Positions 5,840 through 32,000 of a DNA stretch of 32,000 nt are shown here, piece by piece. The DNA is taken from assembly GCA_043808785.1 (NCBI GenBank), contig JAZDEL010000001.1, positions 150,001-182,000 of the forward strand, in the 5' to 3' direction. This DNA is from Candidatus Iainarchaeum sp. (GTDB taxonomy: Archaea; Iainarchaeota; Iainarchaeia; Iainarchaeales; JAZDEL01). Both the position numbers and the translations under genes were made by a program. How positions within the stretch are numbered: the stretch's first letter is position 1; each line of letters opens with the position of its first letter. The notes under the pieces are model-generated. The model was not told where the DNA came from. It saw only the letters and a program-made list of their open reading frames with translations, and made no database searches.

Positions 5840-5944
5840 CCCCTTTGCTTAACCATCCTTATTTTTGCCAATCTATATTGGTGTTTAATGTATAAAAAAC
5901 AAATGCCCCGCCCAAGGTTGCGCGATTTTGCGCAAGTGCGGGGT

Positions 5945-6247
5945 TCAATTGGAGCAATTGCAGCTGCTGCCCTGGTTTATAACCGACTTGAAAAATCCCG
6001 CTACAAAGCCGAGCATTGCCCCTATTGCGGGAAGGTCGGGGTTGGTTACGCCAACCTGTGCAAATCCCGAAACAACAAGCGCGCCGAGCACGGGCACGAT
6101 TGAAAGTATTAGCCCCGTAACCGCGCCCATGAGCGCGCCTATAATCGCGAAGAAAAAGATTGCGATTATCCCCAATATCGCCACTGTTGCGCCTATTGCA
6201 GCAGCGCCTATTGCAGCAAGCAGTGCCCCAGCAATTCTCAGTGCCAT
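5945..6247 (-). CDS. small Gly/Ala-rich membrane protein (100 aa)
   Basis: ATG start and three hydrophobic G/A/I-rich helices. Co-oriented with aspS, 105 nt upstream of it. Confidence 0.5.
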   Translation of the reverse strand: MALRIAGALLAAIGAAAIGATVAILGIIAIFFFAIIGALMGAVTGLILSIVPVLGALVVSGFAQVGVTNPDLPAIGAMLGFVAGFFKSVINQGSSCNCSN

Positions 6248-6300
6248 AATACCGCATTTAGCATGATGCGTAACCTTTTTTTATGTTTCCGTTCATCCAA

Positions 6301-6357
6301 TTTCAGGCAAATGCGCTGTTTATTTTCCCTGCGCGGTTTTCCGTTATTTGCCTGAAA
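6301..6357. promoter_or_regulatory. 12-bp inverted repeat tttcaggcaaat / atttgcctgaaa with a 33-nt spacer, in a divergent intergenic region
   Basis: Arms at 6301-6312 and 6346-6357 are perfect reverse complements. Confidence 0.3.
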
Positions 6358-6389
6358 ATCCGCGGAAATTTGAAAAACAAAACGATAGG

Positions 6390-6416
6390 TATTTAAAATC
6401 ATGATACTATCATGAT
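6390..6416 (+). promoter_or_regulatory. TATA box (tatttaaaa, 6390-6398) overlapping a perfect 9-bp-arm palindrome ATCATGATA-c-TATCATGAT (6398-6416); candidate operator
   Basis: TATA centre is 28 nt upstream of ATG 6422 (leaderless geometry). The palindrome fills the TATA-to-start interval. Confidence 0.4.
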
Positions 6417-6421
6417 ACAGC

Positions 6422-6898
6422 ATGAACAGTCATGAGAGCGGGGAAAAGGTTATAAAGGAAAGCGTCCAGCGAACCCAGCCCGAAGGGTTCGACACAATAA
6501 CCATGGACATCGCACAGATAAGGGAGCAGAGCAAGGACCCTTTCTTCATTTCAATGCTGCTTTACAAGGTAGCAAAGGAGCGCGAGGAGACAAACAGGCT
6601 GCTCGGCAGCATAAATGAAAAATACGACAGGATAATGTTCGAACTCAAGACAGGGGAAATGGACAAAACCGCATTGTTCCCCTCAAAGGAGACGGAGTTC
6701 GAAACCCTGCCCGAACAGGACCAGCTGATAGTGAAATATATCGGCCAGAAGGGCAGTGCGAACGCCAAGGATATTCAGGAAGTGATGCATTACAAGGGTT
6801 TGAACGCGGCATCGCAGAGGCTGAACAAATTATACAAGGAAGGCTACCTTAAGAAAGTGCAGAGCGGCAAGCAGGTAATGTACCTGGTCAGGGGCTGA
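6422..6898 (+). CDS. DNA-binding protein with C-terminal winged helix (MarR-like) domain
   Basis: C-terminal segment QDQLIVKYIGQKGSANAKDIQEVMHYKGLNAASQRLNKLYKEGYLKKVQSGKQVMYL has the wHTH pattern. ATG start. Confidence 0.65.
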   Translation: MNSHESGEKVIKESVQRTQPEGFDTITMDIAQIREQSKDPFFISMLLYKVAKEREETNRLLGSINEKYDRIMFELKTGEMDKTALFPSKETEFETLPEQDQLIVKYIGQKGSANAKDIQEVMHYKGLNAASQRLNKLYKEGYLKKVQSGKQVMYLVRG

Positions 6899-6956
6899 GT
6901 GCCGGGAAAGTTGCCAAGGGCAGAATGCCGAGAAAATTTTATGGAATTGCGCTTGC

Positions 6957-7227
6957 GGAGGCTTAACGCCTCCTCAACTCCCAAAGAATGAAGAAATAAG
7001 TCAGCAAGGAAGAAAATGAATACCTCCTCCCTATTTTGCCTATCGGCAAAATGGGGCGCATTCGGGCTTCCCTATTTGGCTTCTGCCAAATGGGCGCAAT
7101 TGGGCAATGCCCAATTCGCGGTGCCCGAATAGCGTGCCTTTTGTCTCCCCCGCCTTGCGGGGGTTTTACGGGTGCAGCGTAAGCCGCCTTGGGCGCCATT
7201 GCCATGCGCACGGCGTAAGCCGTTTTT
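6957..7227 (+). repeat. intergenic array of GC-rich hairpins (copy 1 of a two-member element family)
   Basis: Hairpins at 6957-6973, 7029-7056, 7071-7094, 7098-7116 and 7147-7163. gcgtaagccg occurs twice (7177-7186, 7213-7222), the second followed by T5. Confidence 0.6.
7060..7130 (+). ncRNA. candidate structured element: closing helix P1 around two hairpins (three-way junction-like), copy 1
   Basis: P1 attcgggc (7060-7067) pairs with gcccgaat (7123-7130). H2 is cctatttggc-ttct-gccaaatggg; H3 is aattgggc-aat-gcccaatt. Covaries with the copy at 28230-28301. Confidence 0.4.
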
Positions 7228-7280
7228 GGATGAACAAAACCTTTAAATTTGCGGGTTGCGTTATCGGCTAAGGTGGGAAA

Positions 7281-7688
7281 ATGTTTGGTAAAATGCACAT
7301 AATGAACCCCCCCGTGAAAAAGCTCCCCAAAAAACTTTTTGTTGTCGATGTTGGCACTGACCCCGCTGATTATATGGGCCATTTTTTTGATAAGCTTTTC
7401 GGAAAAATAAGGGCCGGGCACATTCTCGAGCCTAAAGGGGCACTAACCATAAAATCCGAAGATTTGGACTGCCTCAAGGGTGTTGAAGCAGCAGCGAGAA
7501 CAGCGGGGCTTGCGGTAAAAATCCCGCCCCGCGCTGCCAGCAAGGCGGAATTGGCGCAGTGGGGCGGCATGGAAAATTTTCCCCTAACGAAAGAGATGGC
7601 GAAACACAAGCAAATCTACATTCTCGAAATCAGCGCCGAGAAAGTCAAACCCGGGCATACGGTCCACGTCGAAAAATGGTACCGCTGA
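7281..7688 (+). CDS. hypothetical protein (135 aa)
   Basis: ATG preceded by aaggtggg (7270-7277) and tttaaatt (7242-7249). Ordinary soluble-protein composition, no recognised motif. Confidence 0.55.
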   Translation: MFGKMHIMNPPVKKLPKKLFVVDVGTDPADYMGHFFDKLFGKIRAGHILEPKGALTIKSEDLDCLKGVEAAARTAGLAVKIPPRAASKAELAQWGGMENFPLTKEMAKHKQIYILEISAEKVKPGHTVHVEKWYR

Positions 7689-10288: not shown

Positions 10289-11512
10289 ATGCAGCTCATA
10301 AAAACAATAAAGGTAAAGATACACAAGCCGACAAAGGTAAAGGCACGGCTGATGCATCTCATTCACGAGAATGCCCTATTGCTAAATCAGTATGCGGGGC
10401 TGATTCAGAAACACAAAACTGCCTCGAAGGCGGAGCTTCACAGGCTCACTTACAAAACACTGCGGGAAACATCCAAGCTTCCATCGGCAATAATCCAGAC
10501 CGCCCGCGATAAGGCAATAGAAGCGCACAAATCCTATCGCGGCAGGGTAAAACGCAAAATGAAAGCAAGTCCGCCAGCCTTCGGCAAAAACGCGCCTGTG
10601 CGCCTTGACAGCAGAACGCTTCAAATAAGAGAAACTGGCAACAAAATCAAATACTTTGCCTCGCTTGCAACAAACGGTGAAAGGGTTCACGTGCCCCTGC
10701 TCGGGCACCGATACCAGCATAAATATCTTGCAATGCTGGTGCGCGGCGAGTTGCAGATGGGGGCGGCAGAGCTTCTGAGAAAAGGAGATGATTTTTACAT
10801 TTACCTCACAGTGAAGAAGGAAGCCGCACCTTGTGCGGCTAATGAAAGTGCAACGCCGATTGCAGTAGATTTGGGGCTTGTGAACCTCTCAACTTCCGTG
10901 ATTTTGAGAGGCGGCAAGCCTACAAACATAACTTTCCACAGGGGCGGAAATGCGATAAGAATGCGAAATCACTTTGCCGCATTCCGCGCCTCGCTGGGAA
11001 AGGCAAAAAAGCTCTGGAGAATAAAATCCGCAAAAAGAAAGGAGCAGCGCTGGATGCGAGACCTCAACCATAAGATATCTTCGGCAATAGTCAGGCAGGC
11101 AAGCAGCGTGGCAAATCCCGTGATAGTGCTGGAGCGGCTAAAATACATAAGGCGAAAAATAAACTATTCAAGGAAAATGAACATGCTGCTACACGGGTGG
11201 AGTTTTGCCCAGCTCCAGAGTTTCATAGCGTACAAAGCCGCTTGGGCAGGCATTCCAGTGGCTTATGTAAAGGCCGACTACACCAGCCAATGCTGTAGCA
11301 AATGCGGGCACACTGAGAAGGCAAACAGAAAAGGAAGAATTTTCAGGTGCAGGAAATGTGGTTATGCGCTGAATGCAGACCTGAACGCGGCAATCAATAT
11401 TGGGGGGAGATACAAAACCTTTGCATCGGGCTATATGCCGGATGTAATGGGCGACGTGGCAGCGCCCTTAGCCTTGGAGGCAATCGCTTACCAGGGAAGC
11501 CTGCGCCTTTAG
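10289..11512 (+). CDS. tnpB: TnpB (IS200/IS605 OrfB) RNA-guided endonuclease family protein, apparently intact
   Basis: RuvC-I IAVDLGLVN, RuvC-II VIVLERL, zinc finger CSKCGH..x..CRKCGY, RuvC-III NADLNAAINIG. 407 aa. Confidence 0.9.
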   Translation: MQLIKTIKVKIHKPTKVKARLMHLIHENALLLNQYAGLIQKHKTASKAELHRLTYKTLRETSKLPSAIIQTARDKAIEAHKSYRGRVKRKMKASPPAFGKNAPVRLDSRTLQIRETGNKIKYFASLATNGERVHVPLLGHRYQHKYLAMLVRGELQMGAAELLRKGDDFYIYLTVKKEAAPCAANESATPIAVDLGLVNLSTSVILRGGKPTNITFHRGGNAIRMRNHFAAFRASLGKAKKLWRIKSAKRKEQRWMRDLNHKISSAIVRQASSVANPVIVLERLKYIRRKINYSRKMNMLLHGWSFAQLQSFIAYKAAWAGIPVAYVKADYTSQCCSKCGHTEKANRKGRIFRCRKCGYALNADLNAAINIGGRYKTFASGYMPDVMGDVAAPLALEAIAYQGSLRL

Positions 11513-27113: not shown

Positions 27114-28082
27114 ATGAAATCGTTTTTCCTGCTCTGCCTTATTGTGCCCGCGCTGCTGCTTTGCGGCTGCGCGCAGGAGCCCAGGCCGGGAGCAGGCGCT
27201 GGCGCTGCTGCGGAATACGGCTGCGATTACAGCTGGTACCAGAAAATAACGGATAAGGCAACGGGGGAAATAGTATGGGCATGCCCCGGCACGCACCCAT
27301 ACTGCAAAACAGGGACTGCGCAGTGCTGCAAATACGACGACGAGAAAAAGGAGCACTTTGACTGCATTGATTGCAGGGACGGGCGCTGCAGCGGGACTTC
27401 CCCCGCATACCGGGATGAAAGCGGGAAGGAGCCGGACGAAGCGCAAACATGCTCCAATGCCGAGTATTCAACGGAAATAGCAAACGACTCATGGGCTTAC
27501 GGCTGGGACAAGTTCATAGAGCTGGACTGGGAGAGCCAAAACAGGCTGAGGGCAAAGGCTGCCGAGGAGGGAAGCACTGCCCTGCAGGGCATAAGCGATT
27601 TGGGCTGCATAGAATACCTCGACCTCAGCGCGTTCGATTACAAGGAATATAAGGGAATTACAAGCATTGCTGCCTTGAGCGCTGTTTCAAGCCTGAAAGT
27701 GCTCCGGCTGAAAGCAACCCCGGTTTCGGACCTTTCCCCGATAAGCGGCTTAACCAATCTCGAGGAGCTTGACCTGATAGGTGCCGATATTTCCAGCCTG
27801 TCCGCAATAAGCGGCCTCAAAAAATTGAAGGTTCTGAGAATAAACCTGACTGATGTTTCGGACCTTTCCCCGCTGGGCGGGCTGGCAAGCCTTGAATATT
27901 TCTCCATGAACCGCGTGAAAGTTACGGACATCTCGCCTCTGGCAGGCCTCAAGAGTTTGAAAGACGCAGACCTGATGTACAACGAGCAGATTCCGCAGCA
28001 GGACTGCATTGCATTGAGGGAGCAGCTCCCGAACACCGATGTCTGCTGCCCGGGAATCGGCTGCGACCCGAGATTCAATTAG
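27114..28082 (+). CDS. lipoprotein with Cys-rich N-terminal module and internalin-like leucine-rich repeats
   Basis: Lipobox LLLCGC. Cys-rich 60 aa. Then at least 6 repeats of 22 aa: L..L.L....VSDLSPL.GL..L. Confidence 0.85.
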   Translation: MKSFFLLCLIVPALLLCGCAQEPRPGAGAGAAAEYGCDYSWYQKITDKATGEIVWACPGTHPYCKTGTAQCCKYDDEKKEHFDCIDCRDGRCSGTSPAYRDESGKEPDEAQTCSNAEYSTEIANDSWAYGWDKFIELDWESQNRLRAKAAEEGSTALQGISDLGCIEYLDLSAFDYKEYKGITSIAALSAVSSLKVLRLKATPVSDLSPISGLTNLEELDLIGADISSLSAISGLKKLKVLRINLTDVSDLSPLGGLASLEYFSMNRVKVTDISPLAGLKSLKDADLMYNEQIPQQDCIALREQLPNTDVCCPGIGCDPRFN

Positions 28083-28087
28083 AACAG

Positions 28088-28391
28088 CCTTTTCGGAGCG
28101 CGAAACCTTTGCGGTTTCGCTTCCAAAAGGATTTCGGGCTTTTGCCCGAAAACTTTCGGCCAATGGCTGAAATCCTGGCGAAAACTGCAGTTGTTCGCCC
28201 GCAGGCGAACTGTTCTTGCGCGGACACAGTTCCGAAACTGCGCTAATTGGGCTTTGCCCAATTGCGCCCATTTGGCTACGGCCAAATAGGGCGTTTCGGA
28301 AATTTTCGGGCGTTACGCCCGAAGCCATCCGCGCGTGATGTGTGCGGCTTTCAGCCACGCTTGCCCGCCGAAGGCGGGCTATTTCTTTTGT
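28088..28391. repeat. intergenic array of GC-rich hairpins (copy 2 of the element family, inverted relative to copy 1)
   Basis: Hairpins at 28100-28120 (nested in 28088-28130), 28132-28151, 28154-28172, 28193-28210, 28245-28263, 28267-28290, 28305-28323, 28342-28360 and 28363-28379. Confidence 0.6.
28230..28301 (-). ncRNA. candidate structured element, copy 2 (three-helix core)
   Basis: On the minus strand: P1 ttccgaaac/gtttcggaa; H2 cctatttggc-cgta-gccaaatggg; linker cgc; H3 aattgggc-aaa-gcccaatt. Same architecture as 7060-7130. Confidence 0.4.
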
Positions 28392-28418
28392 CAACTTTTC
28401 TTTCCCAAAGAAAAGTTG
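28392..28418. terminator. perfect 12-bp palindrome caacttttcttt-ccc-aaagaaaagttg giving T tracts on both strands; candidate bidirectional terminator abutting the tRNA-Leu 3' end
   Basis: Arms at 28392-28403 and 28407-28418. On the minus strand CUUUUCUUU follows the tRNA discriminator immediately. Confidence 0.4.
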
Positions 28419-28501
28419 CAGGGAGCAGGATTCGAACCTGCGAAAGGCACTAAGCCACAGGGTTCTAAGCCCTGCCCCTTTGGCCGCTTGGGTATCCCTG
28501 C
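28417..28501 (-). tRNA. tRNA-Leu (anticodon UAG, complement of 28465-28467), 85 nt, long variable arm
   Basis: Acceptor GCAGGGA/TCCCTGC; D arm CCC-AAGCGGCCAAA-GGG; anticodon arm CAGGG-CTTAGAA-CCCTG; 16-nt variable arm; T arm GCAGG-TTCGAAT-CCTGC; discriminator A. Confidence 0.9.
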
Positions 28502-28527
28502 AATTGTAAAAATTAGTGTCTCGCGGA

Positions 28528-28535: not shown

Positions 28536-28549
28536 TCCTTTTCCCGCGC

Positions 28550-28608
28550 CCTAAACAAACTCCACGTCGCGCACCTGCGCAACCGCGCCGCACCTAAACA
28601 AACTCCAC
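28550..28608. repeat. 16-nt perfect direct repeat cctaaacaaactccac (28550-28565 and 28593-28608)
   Basis: The second copy is the last four codons plus the stop of the KH gene. The first copy lies 43 nt downstream of it on the coding strand. Confidence 0.7.
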
Positions 28609-29091
28609 AGTAACATCCGCGTTCAGCAGCATCTTCAGCCCCTTCTCAAGCCCGGCAGCATCCGTGATTGCCTTGCTTTCATCCGCCTTCGCAATCTTGA
28701 CCTTAAAACTCGTGCTCTCCTGCCTGAAAACCTTGTCCACGCCCATCAGCCTCGCCATCCCCACAAAATCCTGTATCATTTTCTTCTCGTCCCTGCTCTT
28801 CTCCACTATGCGCACCTTCTTCCCTAAATCGCGGCTCATCTCCGCGACAATAATTCCGCGCCTCCCTATGATGGAGCCAATCTTCCCCGTGCAGAGCAGC
28901 ACTATCAGCCCGTTTAACTCCAGCGCCTTCCTGAACTCTATGTCGGGCTCGAAAAATCGCCTTGAAAGCTTGTAAAGCAGCCTTGAAACCCGCACATCCA
29001 GCTCGCTAATCTCGTGCGCGTCGAACTTCCTCTGGCACTCTATGCACAGCACATCCCTTTTCAGGTCGTTCTCACATATCGCAGTGCGCAA
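28594..29091 (-). CDS. KH-domain RNA-binding protein, archaeal NusA-like, with N-terminal Cys cluster
   Basis: KH GxxG loop in GKIGSIIGRRGIIVAEMSRDLGKKVRIVE. N-terminal C-x9-C-x2-C. There is no ATG near the 5' end, and the track start is TTG 29091. Confidence 0.6.
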   Translation of the reverse strand: MRTAICENDLKRDVLCIECQRKFDAHEISELDVRVSRLLYKLSRRFFEPDIEFRKALELNGLIVLLCTGKIGSIIGRRGIIVAEMSRDLGKKVRIVEKSRDEKKMIQDFVGMARLMGVDKVFRQESTSFKVKIAKADESKAITDAAGLEKGLKMLLNADVTVEFV

Positions 29092-31780: not shown

Positions 31781-32000
31781 AAAAACACCCTTTCCATTTC
31801 GCCGATTCGGTCTGCAGGGTTCGCCGCAGCTGCAAACCCGCACCCGCTCAGCCGAACCAAAAGGTTTTTATGCCTTGGTCGGCACTAATCTAATAGTAAC
31901 CCCGCATATTTAATTGTTTTTGTTGGGTTATGCGCGGGCTTGCCGCGCATGAAAATGTGAAAAGGCCCTGGCGGCGCTTGTGCCGCCAAAGCAAAGGTGA

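Follow-up and report, generated by a model that had tools for sequence, protein, structure and literature searches.

The window analysed here is a whole stretch of 32,000 nucleotides from a MAG of Candidatus Diapherotrites (DPANN). It contains a leucine-rich-repeat (LRR) protein gene (27114-28082, plus strand), whose product is 100% identical to NCBI V1676_00985 from a Candidatus Diapherotrites archaeon, and a convergent tRNA-Leu(TAG) gene (28415-28502, minus strand). The 330-base spacer between these two genes is filled by ten stable stem-loops, which we refer to as array 2 and which would form the 3' trailer of the LRR gene if read on the plus strand. Because DPANN genomes are tiny and tightly packed, a hairpin-filled spacer of this length is costly and unexpected.

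The original prediction had quoted a series of stems, all of which are present, and had counted at least nine of them; ten terminal hairpins appear in the MFE fold of 28083-28416. It had also placed the start of the array 6 nt behind the LRR gene and its end in a T-tract hairpin touching the tRNA gene, in agreement with a stop codon that ends at 28082, a first stem that begins at 28088 and a last palindrome (28392-28418) that overlaps the tRNA 3' end.

Stability and composition of the hairpin array

The MFE of the region 28083-28416 is -163.2 kcal/mol on the plus strand and -162.7 kcal/mol on the minus strand, compared to a mean of -113 +/- 5 for dinucleotide shuffles (z = -9.4 for both strands; 0 of 100 shuffles equally stable). 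With perfect hairpins defined by a stem of at least 7 and a loop of 3-6, the region holds 8, while 2000 shuffles yielded a mean of 0.21. The remaining 31.5 kb of the window contain 11 such hairpins, which corresponds to chance level (9.1 +/- 2.5 in whole-window shuffles). Composition-matched shuffling, which had been proposed as a control, hence does not reproduce the hairpin density, and because no shuffle comes near the observed stability or hairpin count, an origin of the array by chance or as a compositional artefact is refuted and retains practically no probability.

A folding scan of the 21 intergenic spacers in the window gave z = -7.6 for the array spacer and z = -3.6 for a second spacer (6899-7280), which harbours a sister array. 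A third outlier (5840-6421) is structured too, but it was rejected as a hairpin array because it holds a small ORF for an Ala/Gly-rich membrane protein. Since the other four convergent spacers of the window are short (34-132 nt) and unstructured, a hairpin array is not the usual mode of ending genes in this genome.

Hairpin 1 (28088-28130; -23.5 kcal/mol, z = -4.5) is a long imperfect stem-loop formed by CCTTTTCGGAGC and GCTTCCAAAAGG with a perfect inner stem at 28100-28120 (GCGAAACC-TTTGC-GGTTTCGC). Its 5' arm, CCTTTTCGGAGCGCG, is similar to a sequence located directly after tRNA-Leu in a close relative (L001, 5005-5020; labels L001 to L049 denote the loci or contigs compared with the window, including those of Iainarchaeum and Micrarchaeota). 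Hairpin 2 (28132-28151, TTTCGGGC-TTTT-GCCCGAAA) has a stem related to the ATTCGGGC unit described below, and hairpin 3 (28154-28172, TTTCGGCC-AAT-GGCTGAAA) includes one G.T wobble, which lies on the plus strand as had been noted. Hairpin 4 (28193-28210, GTTCGCC-CGCA-GGCGAAC) displays a c(UGCG)g tetraloop on the minus strand, and 18 nt of it including the loop (28192-28209) recur identically in a relative (L003, 9204-9221), where they lie at the end of a contig and upstream of tRNA-Val.

The central part of the array, described in the next section, is followed by hairpin 6 (28305-28323, TTCGGGCG-TTA-CGCCCGAA), by hairpin 7 (28342-28360), a weak GGCT-TTC-AGCC stem with a 3-bp outer extension, and by hairpin 8 (28363-28379, GCCCGCC-GAA-GGCGGGC), which presents a c(UUC)g loop on the minus strand and precedes TATTTCTTTT on the plus strand. 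The last element is the T-tract palindrome (28392-28418, CAACTTTTCTTT-CCC-AAAGAAAAGTTG; z = -4.5). It carries an oligo-T run on each strand and is probably a bidirectional terminator; an analogous palindrome (CTTTTTT-TGAT-AAAAAAG) abuts tRNA-Leu(TAG) in L035, where the array is absent. In the 345 kb examined, second copies or relatives were found for the central core and hairpin 4, and weakly for hairpins 2 and 6, while five or six of the ten hairpins had no second copy.

A bulged unit, its doublet and a Y-shaped module

Several hairpins belong to a family with a unit of ~27 nt (25-29), composed of a GC clamp of 2-5 bp, one bulged T, a stem of 7-8 bp and a loop of 3-4 nt. The stem is first AT-rich and then GC-rich, the loop is unconstrained, and on the opposite strand the bulged base is an A. 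Two units in opposite orientation that share a GCGC linker form a doublet of ~50 nt in a head-to-head arrangement (T-unit, then A-unit). In the alignment of the units, 96.7% of the cells are paired and double-sided changes occur in 6 of 11 pairs, a score reached by none of 500 shuffles; in that of the doublets, compensatory changes occur in 8 of 20 pairs. We built models of the unit (R1) and the doublet (R2), both of which find copies outside their training sets.

The core of array 2 is one such doublet. Unit H1 (28241-28266, plus strand; CGC-T-AATTGGGC-TTT-GCCCAATT-GCG) has its bulged T on the plus strand and scores 24.4 bits with R1, and unit H2 (28265-28293, minus strand; CGCCC-T-ATTTGGC-CGTA-GCCAAAT-GGGCG) has it on the minus strand, with a UACG loop on the plus strand; although not in the training set, H2 reaches 29.3 bits (E = 2e-4). 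The match of hairpin 2 to R1 is marginal (13.4 bits, E = 1.5). The original prediction had described a conserved mismatch in H2; conservation is borne out, but the feature is better described as a single bulged base, T or A depending on the strand, that occurs in every family unit.

A second copy of the core had been reported as well, and the 51 nt at 28241-28291 (plus) indeed match 7070-7120 (minus) at 88%, with the differences nearly all in the loops. The counterpart of H1 (7095-7120, minus) retains the stem and has a different loop, that of H2 lies at 7070-7094 (plus), and a relative of H2 with compensatory changes is found at L042 2507-2533. The core is the only part that the two arrays of the window share when aligned. 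According to R1 there are 4-5 family units in the window; unit orientation is mixed within one array, and most of the remaining hairpins in array 2 fall outside the family.

An outer stem (TTCCGAAAC / GTTTCGGAA, 28230-28238 with 28293-28301) encloses the core doublet and yields a Y-shaped module (28230-28301; -42 kcal/mol, z = -6.9). Modules built in this way, but with other outer stems, were found at 7057-7135 of the window, L044 6812-6884 and L015 1310-1386, so that four nested doublets in three genomes combine four outer-stem sequences with one Y geometry, each with z about -6.5. All three helices of the Y modules covary, the MFE structure accounts for more than 40% of the ensemble, and R2 scores 72-81 bits on the four instances and 50 bits on an untrained copy in L042.

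This constancy of the junction would suit a discrete structured RNA of ~75 nt, either an sRNA or a protein-binding cis element, or an origin-like structure of single-stranded DNA, with the other hairpins being incidental. We consider this very unlikely, because the two window copies face opposite ways with respect to the genes beside them, an outer stem is missing from the doublets in L042 and L049, no promoter or terminator delimits a gene, and the Rfam scan gave only the two tRNAs above threshold and nothing credible at E <= 1. In addition, ordinary family units make up two of the four outer stems; one of these units carries a 4-nt loop elsewhere (L044), and this is what nested insertion predicts.

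Distribution of the units and loop signatures

The search for related arrays, which had also been suggested, recovered a sister array within the window and copies in other DPANN genomes. Within sister array 1 (7029-7163), the block 7029-7133 consists of a T-unit with a ATTTTGCC stem (7029-7055) followed by a ATTCGGGC unit (7056-7133), the loop of which contains core copy 1 (7070-7120). Outside 28083-28416 and 7029-7163, hairpins in the window are at chance level. In six relatives, the wHTH gene is followed by a spacer of ~130-230 nt with the same flanking motifs but without the 105-nt block 7029-7133, as judged by manual alignment on the conserved flanks; because CCCTATTT recurs, automatic alignments of filled and empty sites were ambiguous, and the empty site is therefore claimed from the manual reading. 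The LRR orthologues in relatives are followed by a spacer of 34-66 nt and no array, and in L035, in a comparison based on the tRNA gene alone, only the T-tract palindrome follows tRNA-Leu. The relatives used for presence and absence are distant, with the flanking wHTH and LRR proteins at 62-72% amino-acid identity.

Units and doublets also occur in contigs of Iainarchaeum and Micrarchaeota, with stems that are identical or compensatorily changed and loops that differ. The ATTTTGCC unit appears with at least nine different loops across the window, L001, L006, L010, L015, L035, L039, L042, L044 and L049, and among its 24 genome matches are two MAGs of Micrarchaeota and two contigs from a single Iainarchaeum MAG. 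The doublet of ATTTTGCC and ATTCGGGC is common to the window (7029-7133), L044 and, in cut form, L009 and L001. Both arrays of the window and all unit copies in DPANN are extragenic and lie between called genes or tRNAs. An exact 21-mer across the core junction had no match in genome, metagenome or viral collections.

Among the four-base loops, 13 of 41 are cUNCGg at DPANN array loci vs 3 of 78 at control loci (Fisher 5e-5; binomial 2e-10 against an expected 3.1%). The closing pair is C-G in 12 of the 13 cases, and wherever the flanking genes are co-directional these loops lie on the sense strand. This excess points to selection at the RNA level. For array 2, the signs of a strand of action are mixed, which justifies the caution of the original prediction: both strands fold equally well, unit orientation is mixed and stable-loop signatures occur on both strands (UGCG and UUC on minus, UACG on plus).

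We also considered that purely functional RNA hairpins evolved in place. The spacer would then be a long structured trailer or insulator separating the tRNA from the convergent mRNA, any stable hairpin would serve, and units would be shared by descent or convergence and not through mobility. Besides the enrichment of cUNCGg and c(UUC)g loops and the position of arrays at gene ends, this is supported by a unit 4-6 nt upstream of tRNA-Thr. Four Micrarchaeota have this unit at the same place, with compensatory changes in the stem and replacements of the whole tip that preserve pairing, and it looks more like a conserved functional element than like a mobile one. Nevertheless, arrays occupy only 2 of the 21 spacers in the window and are missing at orthologous sites, the other convergent gene pairs manage with short, unstructured spacers, and ten consecutive hairpins go beyond any plausible need. 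Moreover, identical stems recur in unrelated contexts and different phyla, doublets are nested within other hairpins and orientation is mixed inside one array. Evolution entirely in place is therefore unlikely.

Relation to known elements and possible origin

REPs are palindromes of 20-40 nt with a functionally required bulge that are clustered in alternating orientation (PMC2817692, PMC8266576). The DPANN units resemble REP/BIME/REPIN elements (RAYT / TnpA-REP) in being extragenic imperfect palindromes of similar size that form clusters and inverted doublets, in a conserved stem bulge that makes the hairpin strand-specific, in compensatory changes that keep palindromy, in their position at gene 3' ends and in presumed RNA-level effects. 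They differ in the DPANN host, in arrays that mix many unrelated stems instead of one or two repeated units, and in doublets nested inside other hairpins. The GTAG/CGTC head that is a hallmark of REPs is absent from the unit alignment, which starts with C(G/C)C-T-ATT. REPs typically exceed 100 copies per genome.

No RAYT, Y1 or HUH domain was detected among the ~29 window ORFs scanned or in the Pfam lists of the compared loci. Three candidates for a RAYT gene were discarded: 6422-6898 encodes a conserved winged-helix protein, as judged by its sequence and the annotation of a homologue (no Pfam hit), 7281-7688 gave no hits and 5859-6257 (minus) is a spurious ORF. A gene located between unit-bearing inverted repeats in L049 was likewise rejected as a transposase, because its translation and a faint match to PF07385 suggest a lyxose-isomerase-like cupin.

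A second group of analogues is mitochondrial. Between yeast species, mitochondrial GC clusters vary in their loops only, and the clusters merge and shuffle (PMC4478555). These clusters, the fungal double-hairpin elements and the repetitive hairpin-forming elements of sponges share with the DPANN arrays an accumulation of short GC-rich hairpins between the genes of small genomes, variation mainly in the loops, modules that merge, shuffle or nest, two-hairpin units and the lack of an encoded transposase. Unlike them, the arrays described here reside in a cellular archaeal genome and belong to different sequence families, and the short direct repeats that flank yeast GC clusters (AG, ACT) were not seen here. 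The claim that such arrays are undescribed in archaea holds for the literature searched, in which we found no description, but with these bacterial and mitochondrial analogues the array is less unprecedented than implied.

Other known systems fit less well. Archaeal MITEs (Sulfolobus SM1-4, Haloquadratum) are non-autonomous intergenic repeats too. MITEs measure 100-300 nt and have terminal inverted repeats, target duplications and an identifiable parent IS. The DPANN units, in contrast, are ~27 nt long and do not resemble the window's sole IS-type gene, and no direct repeats of at least 10 nt flank array 1 or array 2. Integron attC sites (57-141 nt) possess R''/R' core sites (RYYYAAC...GTTRRRY) and extrahelical bases, separate cassettes and go with an IntI gene, while the units here directly adjoin one another and enclose no cassettes; attC core sites were not seen on reading the array sequence, and there is no integrase in the window. 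DNA uptake sequences of the Neisseria type have an arm that is over-represented genome-wide, including inside genes, at ~1 per kb. This idea was rejected, as the 32 kb contain 5 occurrences of ATTTTGCC and its complement, of which 2 belong to the hairpin, and no arm ranks among the top 8-mers.

Like intrinsic or archaeal oligo-T terminators, the palindrome at 28392-28418 and hairpin 8, which has a T-rich tail, combine a hairpin with a T-run, on both strands. One such signal would suffice, however, and the other eight hairpins lack T-runs. The best reading of the array is not an ordinary terminator but an archaeal (DPANN) analogue of REP/BIME and of mobile palindromic clusters in mitochondria.

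In the specific form that we favour, with a probability of about 0.5, REP/BIME-like dispersed palindromic elements have gathered in a permissive spacer and are transcribed as protective or insulating RNA hairpins that end in a bidirectional T-tract terminator. Units and doublets would spread or be exchanged from one intergenic site to another, frequently entering the loop of a hairpin already present, and would accumulate where insertion is harmless, in this case a convergent spacer beside a tRNA gene. As suggested by loop composition, the hairpins may be transcribed with the LRR mRNA as its 3' trailer, by read-through from tRNA-Leu, or both, and such very stable RNA stem-loops could block 3' exonucleases and insulate the two transcripts, with the terminal palindrome presumably serving as an oligo-T terminator for both directions.

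Alternatively, the arrays might be debris of integrative or IS200/IS605-type elements, that is, att, transposon-end or PATE-like remnants that repeated integration beside tRNA genes left behind and that are moved in trans by an integrase or by a Y1 transposase encoded elsewhere. In line with this, arrays adjoin tRNAs in three independent loci (tRNA-Leu, tRNA-Thr and tRNA-Val), and short hairpin-bearing inserts with gene-end direct repeats of 14-19 nt occur at tRNA-Ile in the window as well as in L035 and in L044; a comparable duplication of 16 nt at the end of the KH gene in the window surrounds a GC-rich insert that contains short palindromes only. The TnpA of IS608 recognises a hairpin with an unpaired T (PMC8266576), to which the bulged T of the DPANN units bears a resemblance only. 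The window also encodes a TnpB (10289-11512), its only transposon gene, but the flanks of this element do not match the arrays, and neither an integrase nor a Y1 gene (including IS200/IS605 TnpA) is present in the window. No copy of the tRNA-Leu 3' end exists beyond the far side of array 2; an att-type duplication was dismissed because the only match, of 9 nt inside the LRR gene, is compatible with chance. Family patterns had no match in viral contigs, and a viral or plasmid origin of the units was rejected on these grounds. Taken together, we regard debris of this kind as quite improbable.

Returning to REP/BIME-like elements, a more far-reaching version would be that DPANN (Diapherotrites/Iainarchaeota, Micrarchaeota) carry undescribed, self-nesting doublet elements of ~50 nt, each with two bulged-T stem-loops, that insert specifically into the loops of existing hairpins, are moved by some enzyme and were later co-opted as ultra-stable cUNCGg RNA at gene/tRNA boundaries. 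We put this forward tentatively, as a rather doubtful possibility. Three of the four nested doublets can be read as a T^G insertion in the host loop, and the self-nesting mechanism could have left as its footprint the insertions with target duplications of 14-19 nt that are seen at the ends of tRNAs and genes.

So far, REPs have been described in bacteria, together with their RAYT transposases, and palindromic repeats of a comparable kind are known from organelles. If the DPANN units are REP-like, small palindromic repeats extend beyond these two groups, which raises the question of an archaeal mobilising enzyme. Archaeal termination is usually described as oligo-T-driven, and given this view the strong cUNCGg bias is notable, as it suggests that hairpins are used at transcript ends in DPANN.

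The units also matter for the reconstruction of DPANN genomes, as assembly breaks and as gene-order breakpoints. They are located where gene order differs between relatives, and they appear to break metagenome assemblies, because three contigs (L001, L003 and L009) terminate within family hairpins, as expected for repeats.

Hairpin array between the LRR gene and tRNA-Leu

The spacer at 28083-28416, between a leucine-rich-repeat (LRR) gene (27114-28082, plus strand) and tRNA-Leu(TAG) (28415-28502, minus strand), contains all the stems listed in the original prediction, and its minimum-energy fold has ten terminal hairpins that are nearly free of spacers. Fold energies were equal on the two strands (-163.2 and -162.7 kcal/mol). 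Shuffled sequences of this region averaged -113 ± 5 (z = -9.4) and no dinucleotide shuffle came near the observed value. Perfect hairpins (stem of at least 7, loop of 3-6) numbered 8 in the array region, with 0.21 expected. The whole 32-kb window holds 23, of which 12 fall within this array and its sister array at 7029-7163, and the remaining 11 in 31.5 kb agree with the shuffle expectation (9.1 ± 2.5). The observation of a hairpin array is confirmed as real and not ordinary.

A spacer-by-spacer test found structure in three of 21 intergenic spacers, namely 28083-28414 (z = -7.6), 6899-7280 (z = -3.6) and 5840-6421, and a sliding-window energy scan was consistent with this result. The last of these was rejected as an array because its apparent structure is accounted for by a small ORF (5945-6247, minus strand; 100 aa, Ala/Gly/Ile-rich, probably a membrane protein); a 12-bp inverted repeat, TTTCAGGCAAAT / ATTTGCCTGAAA (6301-6357), separates this ORF from a wHTH gene. 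The four other convergent spacers of the window (34-132 nt) are without structure, and the array is not this genome's normal way of ending genes. Two adjacent hairpins at 31930-31988, ATGCGCGG-GCTTG-CCGCGCAT and TGGCGGC-GCTTGT-GCCGCCA, lie just past a gene ending at 31893 and may represent a small third array that is truncated where the window stops.

Bulged palindromic units and their doublets

A 51-nt core at 28241-28291 (plus strand) is repeated at 7070-7120 on the opposite strand, with identical stems and nearly all differences confined to two loops. From the two core hairpins and the hairpin at 7029-7055 we read a common unit of about 27 nt that comprises a GC clamp of 2-5 bp, a single bulged T, a 7-8 bp inner stem starting with A(T/A)T and GC-rich at its end, and a loop of 3-4 nt. 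We searched public contigs with the 7029-7055 stem as the query, leaving the loop free. Various bacteria yielded lone matches that look like chance. The DPANN matches lay inside back-to-back hairpin clusters of two Micrarchaeota MAGs (L035 and L039; L numbers denote contigs or loci fetched from other genomes or metagenomes), of two contigs from one Iainarchaeum MAG (L042 and L044) and of metagenome contigs (L006, L010, L015 and L009). Among the contigs compared, the closest relatives were Diapherotrites/Iainarchaeota and Micrarchaeota, and a 'Candidatus Diapherotrites archaeon' MAG encodes the neighbour proteins with 100% identity (NCBI V1676_00905 and V1676_00985).

The ATTTTGCC stem occurs with at least nine different loops, and adjoining units outside the search pattern differ in their inner stems, the two arms of each still being complementary (ATTCGGGC, ATTTGGGT, ATTTGGC and AATTGGGC). 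In an alignment of 12 units, nine of which came from the palindromic search pattern so that the three neighbouring units are the informative ones, 96.7% of cells were paired and 6 of 11 pairs showed two-sided changes; no column shuffle or slid register approached this pairing. A unit covariance model recovered window copies on which it had not been trained (28267-28291, minus; 7070-7094, plus; 28241-28266, plus) and separated the strands by about 15 bits, and the bulge thus gives the hairpin a direction. For about half of the ten hairpins, no second copy was found in the sequences examined.

Units also join head to head as doublets of about 50 nt, a T-bulged unit followed by an A-bulged one, with a GCGC linker in common. 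In an alignment of four doublets, 8 of 20 pairs were compensatory, and the doublet model also matched L042 (50 bits) and cut copies at the contig ends of L009 and L001. ATTTTGCC is coupled to ATTCGGGC in the window (7029-7133) and in L044 and to ATTTGGGT in L042 and L049, and the window core couples AATTGGGC to ATTTGGC; the modules are shuffled from genome to genome. In four cases (both window cores, L044 and L015) a doublet lies within the loop of another hairpin, which gives a Y-shaped module of about 75 nt (z about -6.5 each) with one junction geometry and differing outer stems (TTCCGAAAC, ATTCGGGC, GGGCTGCT and CCTATTTTTCGCC). Because two of the four outer stems are family units themselves, and ATTCGGGC carries an ordinary 4-nt loop in L044, we read the Y modules as probable insertions of doublets into hairpin loops. 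Judging from these four cases, the junction may be read as T^G in three of them.

Orthologous sites and possible insertions

In six relatives (68-72% protein identity), the spacer after the wHTH gene (6422-6898) is roughly 130-230 nt long and has the window's landmarks, CTCCT(T/C)AACTCCCAA, then CC(T)ATTTGTCT and, last, a G/C hairpin and a T-run after it; the 105-nt block 7029-7133 is missing from it. The flanks were read manually because CCCTATTT recurs and makes automatic alignments ambiguous. LRR orthologues (62-63% identity) have downstream spacers of 34-66 nt and other neighbours; LRR neighbours are also changed in L051 and L052. At tRNA-Leu(TAG), L035 has a T-tract palindrome alone and then a convergent gene's stop. 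L001, in which the KH protein next door shows 93% identity, has tRNA-Leu, CCTTTTCGAGCGCG and then a family unit at which the contig ends. The fourth hairpin of the array with its loop (28192-28209, 18 nt) is identical to the final 18 nt of L003, upstream of tRNA-Val. Three contigs break within family hairpins, as repeats tend to break assemblies.

In L003 (365-1421) the wHTH gene directly follows the KH gene, whereas in the window the two (6422-6898 and 28594-29091) lie on opposite strands with 21 kb between them, each beside an array, with the core in opposite orientations. Because gene order is altered around both arrays, the arrays coincide with synteny breakpoints.

The tRNA-Ile 3' end AAATCTCATCTCCCCCACT (1052-1070) recurs with 18/19 matches at 1130-1148, and the 59 nt in between hold the hairpin GCCCGGA-TCCT-TCCGGGC; 1052-1148 resembles a tiny insert flanked by an att-type duplication or a long target-site duplication. 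At 28546-28606, the last 16 nt, stop included, of the KH/NusA-like gene (minus strand), GTGGAGTTTGTTTAGG, occur twice, 27 nt apart, enclosing a GC-rich palindromic piece, and L001 has a single copy and thus represents a clean empty site. Hairpin clusters also lie between 14-16 nt direct repeats in L035 (4624-4780; repeats of the tRNA-Thr 3' end) and in L044 (6768-6975; repeats of the beginning of a gene for 758 aa, with up to three copies of its first codons present). Together, the L035, L044 and two window cases suggest an insertion process making 14-19 nt duplications. Neither the window nor the fetched loci yielded a mobilising enzyme.

The window encodes a TnpB or Cas12f1-like TNB-domain protein (10289-11512, plus strand; an IS200/IS605-type accessory gene) with no TnpA adjacent. 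A CCCGTGC...GCACGGG stem lies within the first 230 nt downstream of this gene, and a similar hairpin, GCCCCGTGC-ATA-GCACGGGGC, is found near an unannotated 412-aa gene in L003. We rejected the array as a derivative of this TnpB element and likewise as a classical MITE, an attC array or an uptake-sequence pair; it matches no Rfam family.

Known systems and the level of action

The closest known systems are the bacterial REP/BIME/REPIN repeats. These extragenic palindromes of 20-40 nt have a bulge that is needed for function, evolve by compensatory changes and form clusters and inverted doublets (PMC2817692, PMC8266576). Mitochondrial palindromic mobile clusters, with loop-only differences and modules that merge and shuffle (PMC4478555), are also close. 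The unit alignment contains no GTAG/CGTC head and neither the window nor the fetched loci contain a RAYT gene, two defining features on which membership in the REP family proper fails. No viral contig matched the family patterns of the array. A review of prokaryotic MITEs places archaeal ones only in Sulfolobus, haloarchaea and few other genomes (PMC10969869), and the papers searched gave no description of such arrays in DPANN.

A DNA-level definition of the palindromes is favoured by the equal folding of the strands, the mixed unit orientation within an array, the lack of arrays at orthologous sites and the recurrence of stems in unrelated contexts. In DPANN array loci, however, loop sequences are biased: 13 of 41 four-base loops are UNCG on one strand, 12 of the 13 with a C-G closing pair, compared to 3 of 78 in control loci and about 3% expected (Fisher 5e-5; binomial 2e-10, or 1e-7 with orthologues collapsed). 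Where the flanking genes are co-directional (L006, L010, L035, L039 and L044), the sense strand carries the UNCG loops and C-G-closed UUC triloops. Because cUNCGg is exceptionally stable in RNA and is not known to be so in DNA, this sense-strand enrichment points to selection on transcripts.

The strand of action of the array was left open in the original prediction, and the stable-loop signal is indeed split between both strands. The tRNA-Leu strand has UGCG (28200-28203) and UUC (28370-28372), and the LRR strand has UACG (28277-28280) and the G.U pair of the hairpin at 28154-28172. The split fits, without proving, a convergent spacer with transcription from both sides. The terminal palindrome (28392-28418) has an oligo-T run on each strand and, considered with its L035 counterpart, is likely a bidirectional terminator. 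The likeliest explanation, to which we give about even odds (roughly 0.5), is that REP-like units and doublets piled up in a permissive LRR/tRNA-Leu spacer, where the accumulated hairpins would now serve as stable RNA structures at the ends of the LRR and tRNA-Leu transcripts.

In four Micrarchaeota, 3-5 different hairpins follow a gene stop and reach to within 4-6 nt of the 5' end of tRNA-Thr(GGT) (L006 4690-4770, L010 5536-5666, L035 5608-5741 and L039 1879-1953), with a spacing near 27 nt in L010 and L039. The first unit is kept and later hairpins are swapped tip-first with pairing preserved; L006 and L010 have long, unrelated tRNA introns, L035 has a short one and L039 none. A 45-nt inverted repeat surrounds a lyxose-isomerase-like cupin gene in L049 (452-497 and 1147-1191), and a TTTTGCC hairpin ends each copy.

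The palindrome TATCATGA-N3-5-TCATGATA, at 6398-6416 shortly before the wHTH start, recurs at L003 918-942, L046 1382-1402, L048 34-54, L049 1710-1730 and L004 8384-8400, is conserved upstream of wHTH relatives in L003 and L046-L049 and is probably the operator of the wHTH protein itself. Downstream of the wHTH gene, a non-coding block, CTCCTTAACTCCCAA...GGGGAACTCCCCCTATTTGTCTTTGCCCCC-TTA-GGGGGGC (window 6960-7030, L003 1422-1600, L046 1884-2012 and L047-L050), is conserved across relatives despite a protein identity of only about 70% and is a candidate small RNA or conserved 3' UTR.
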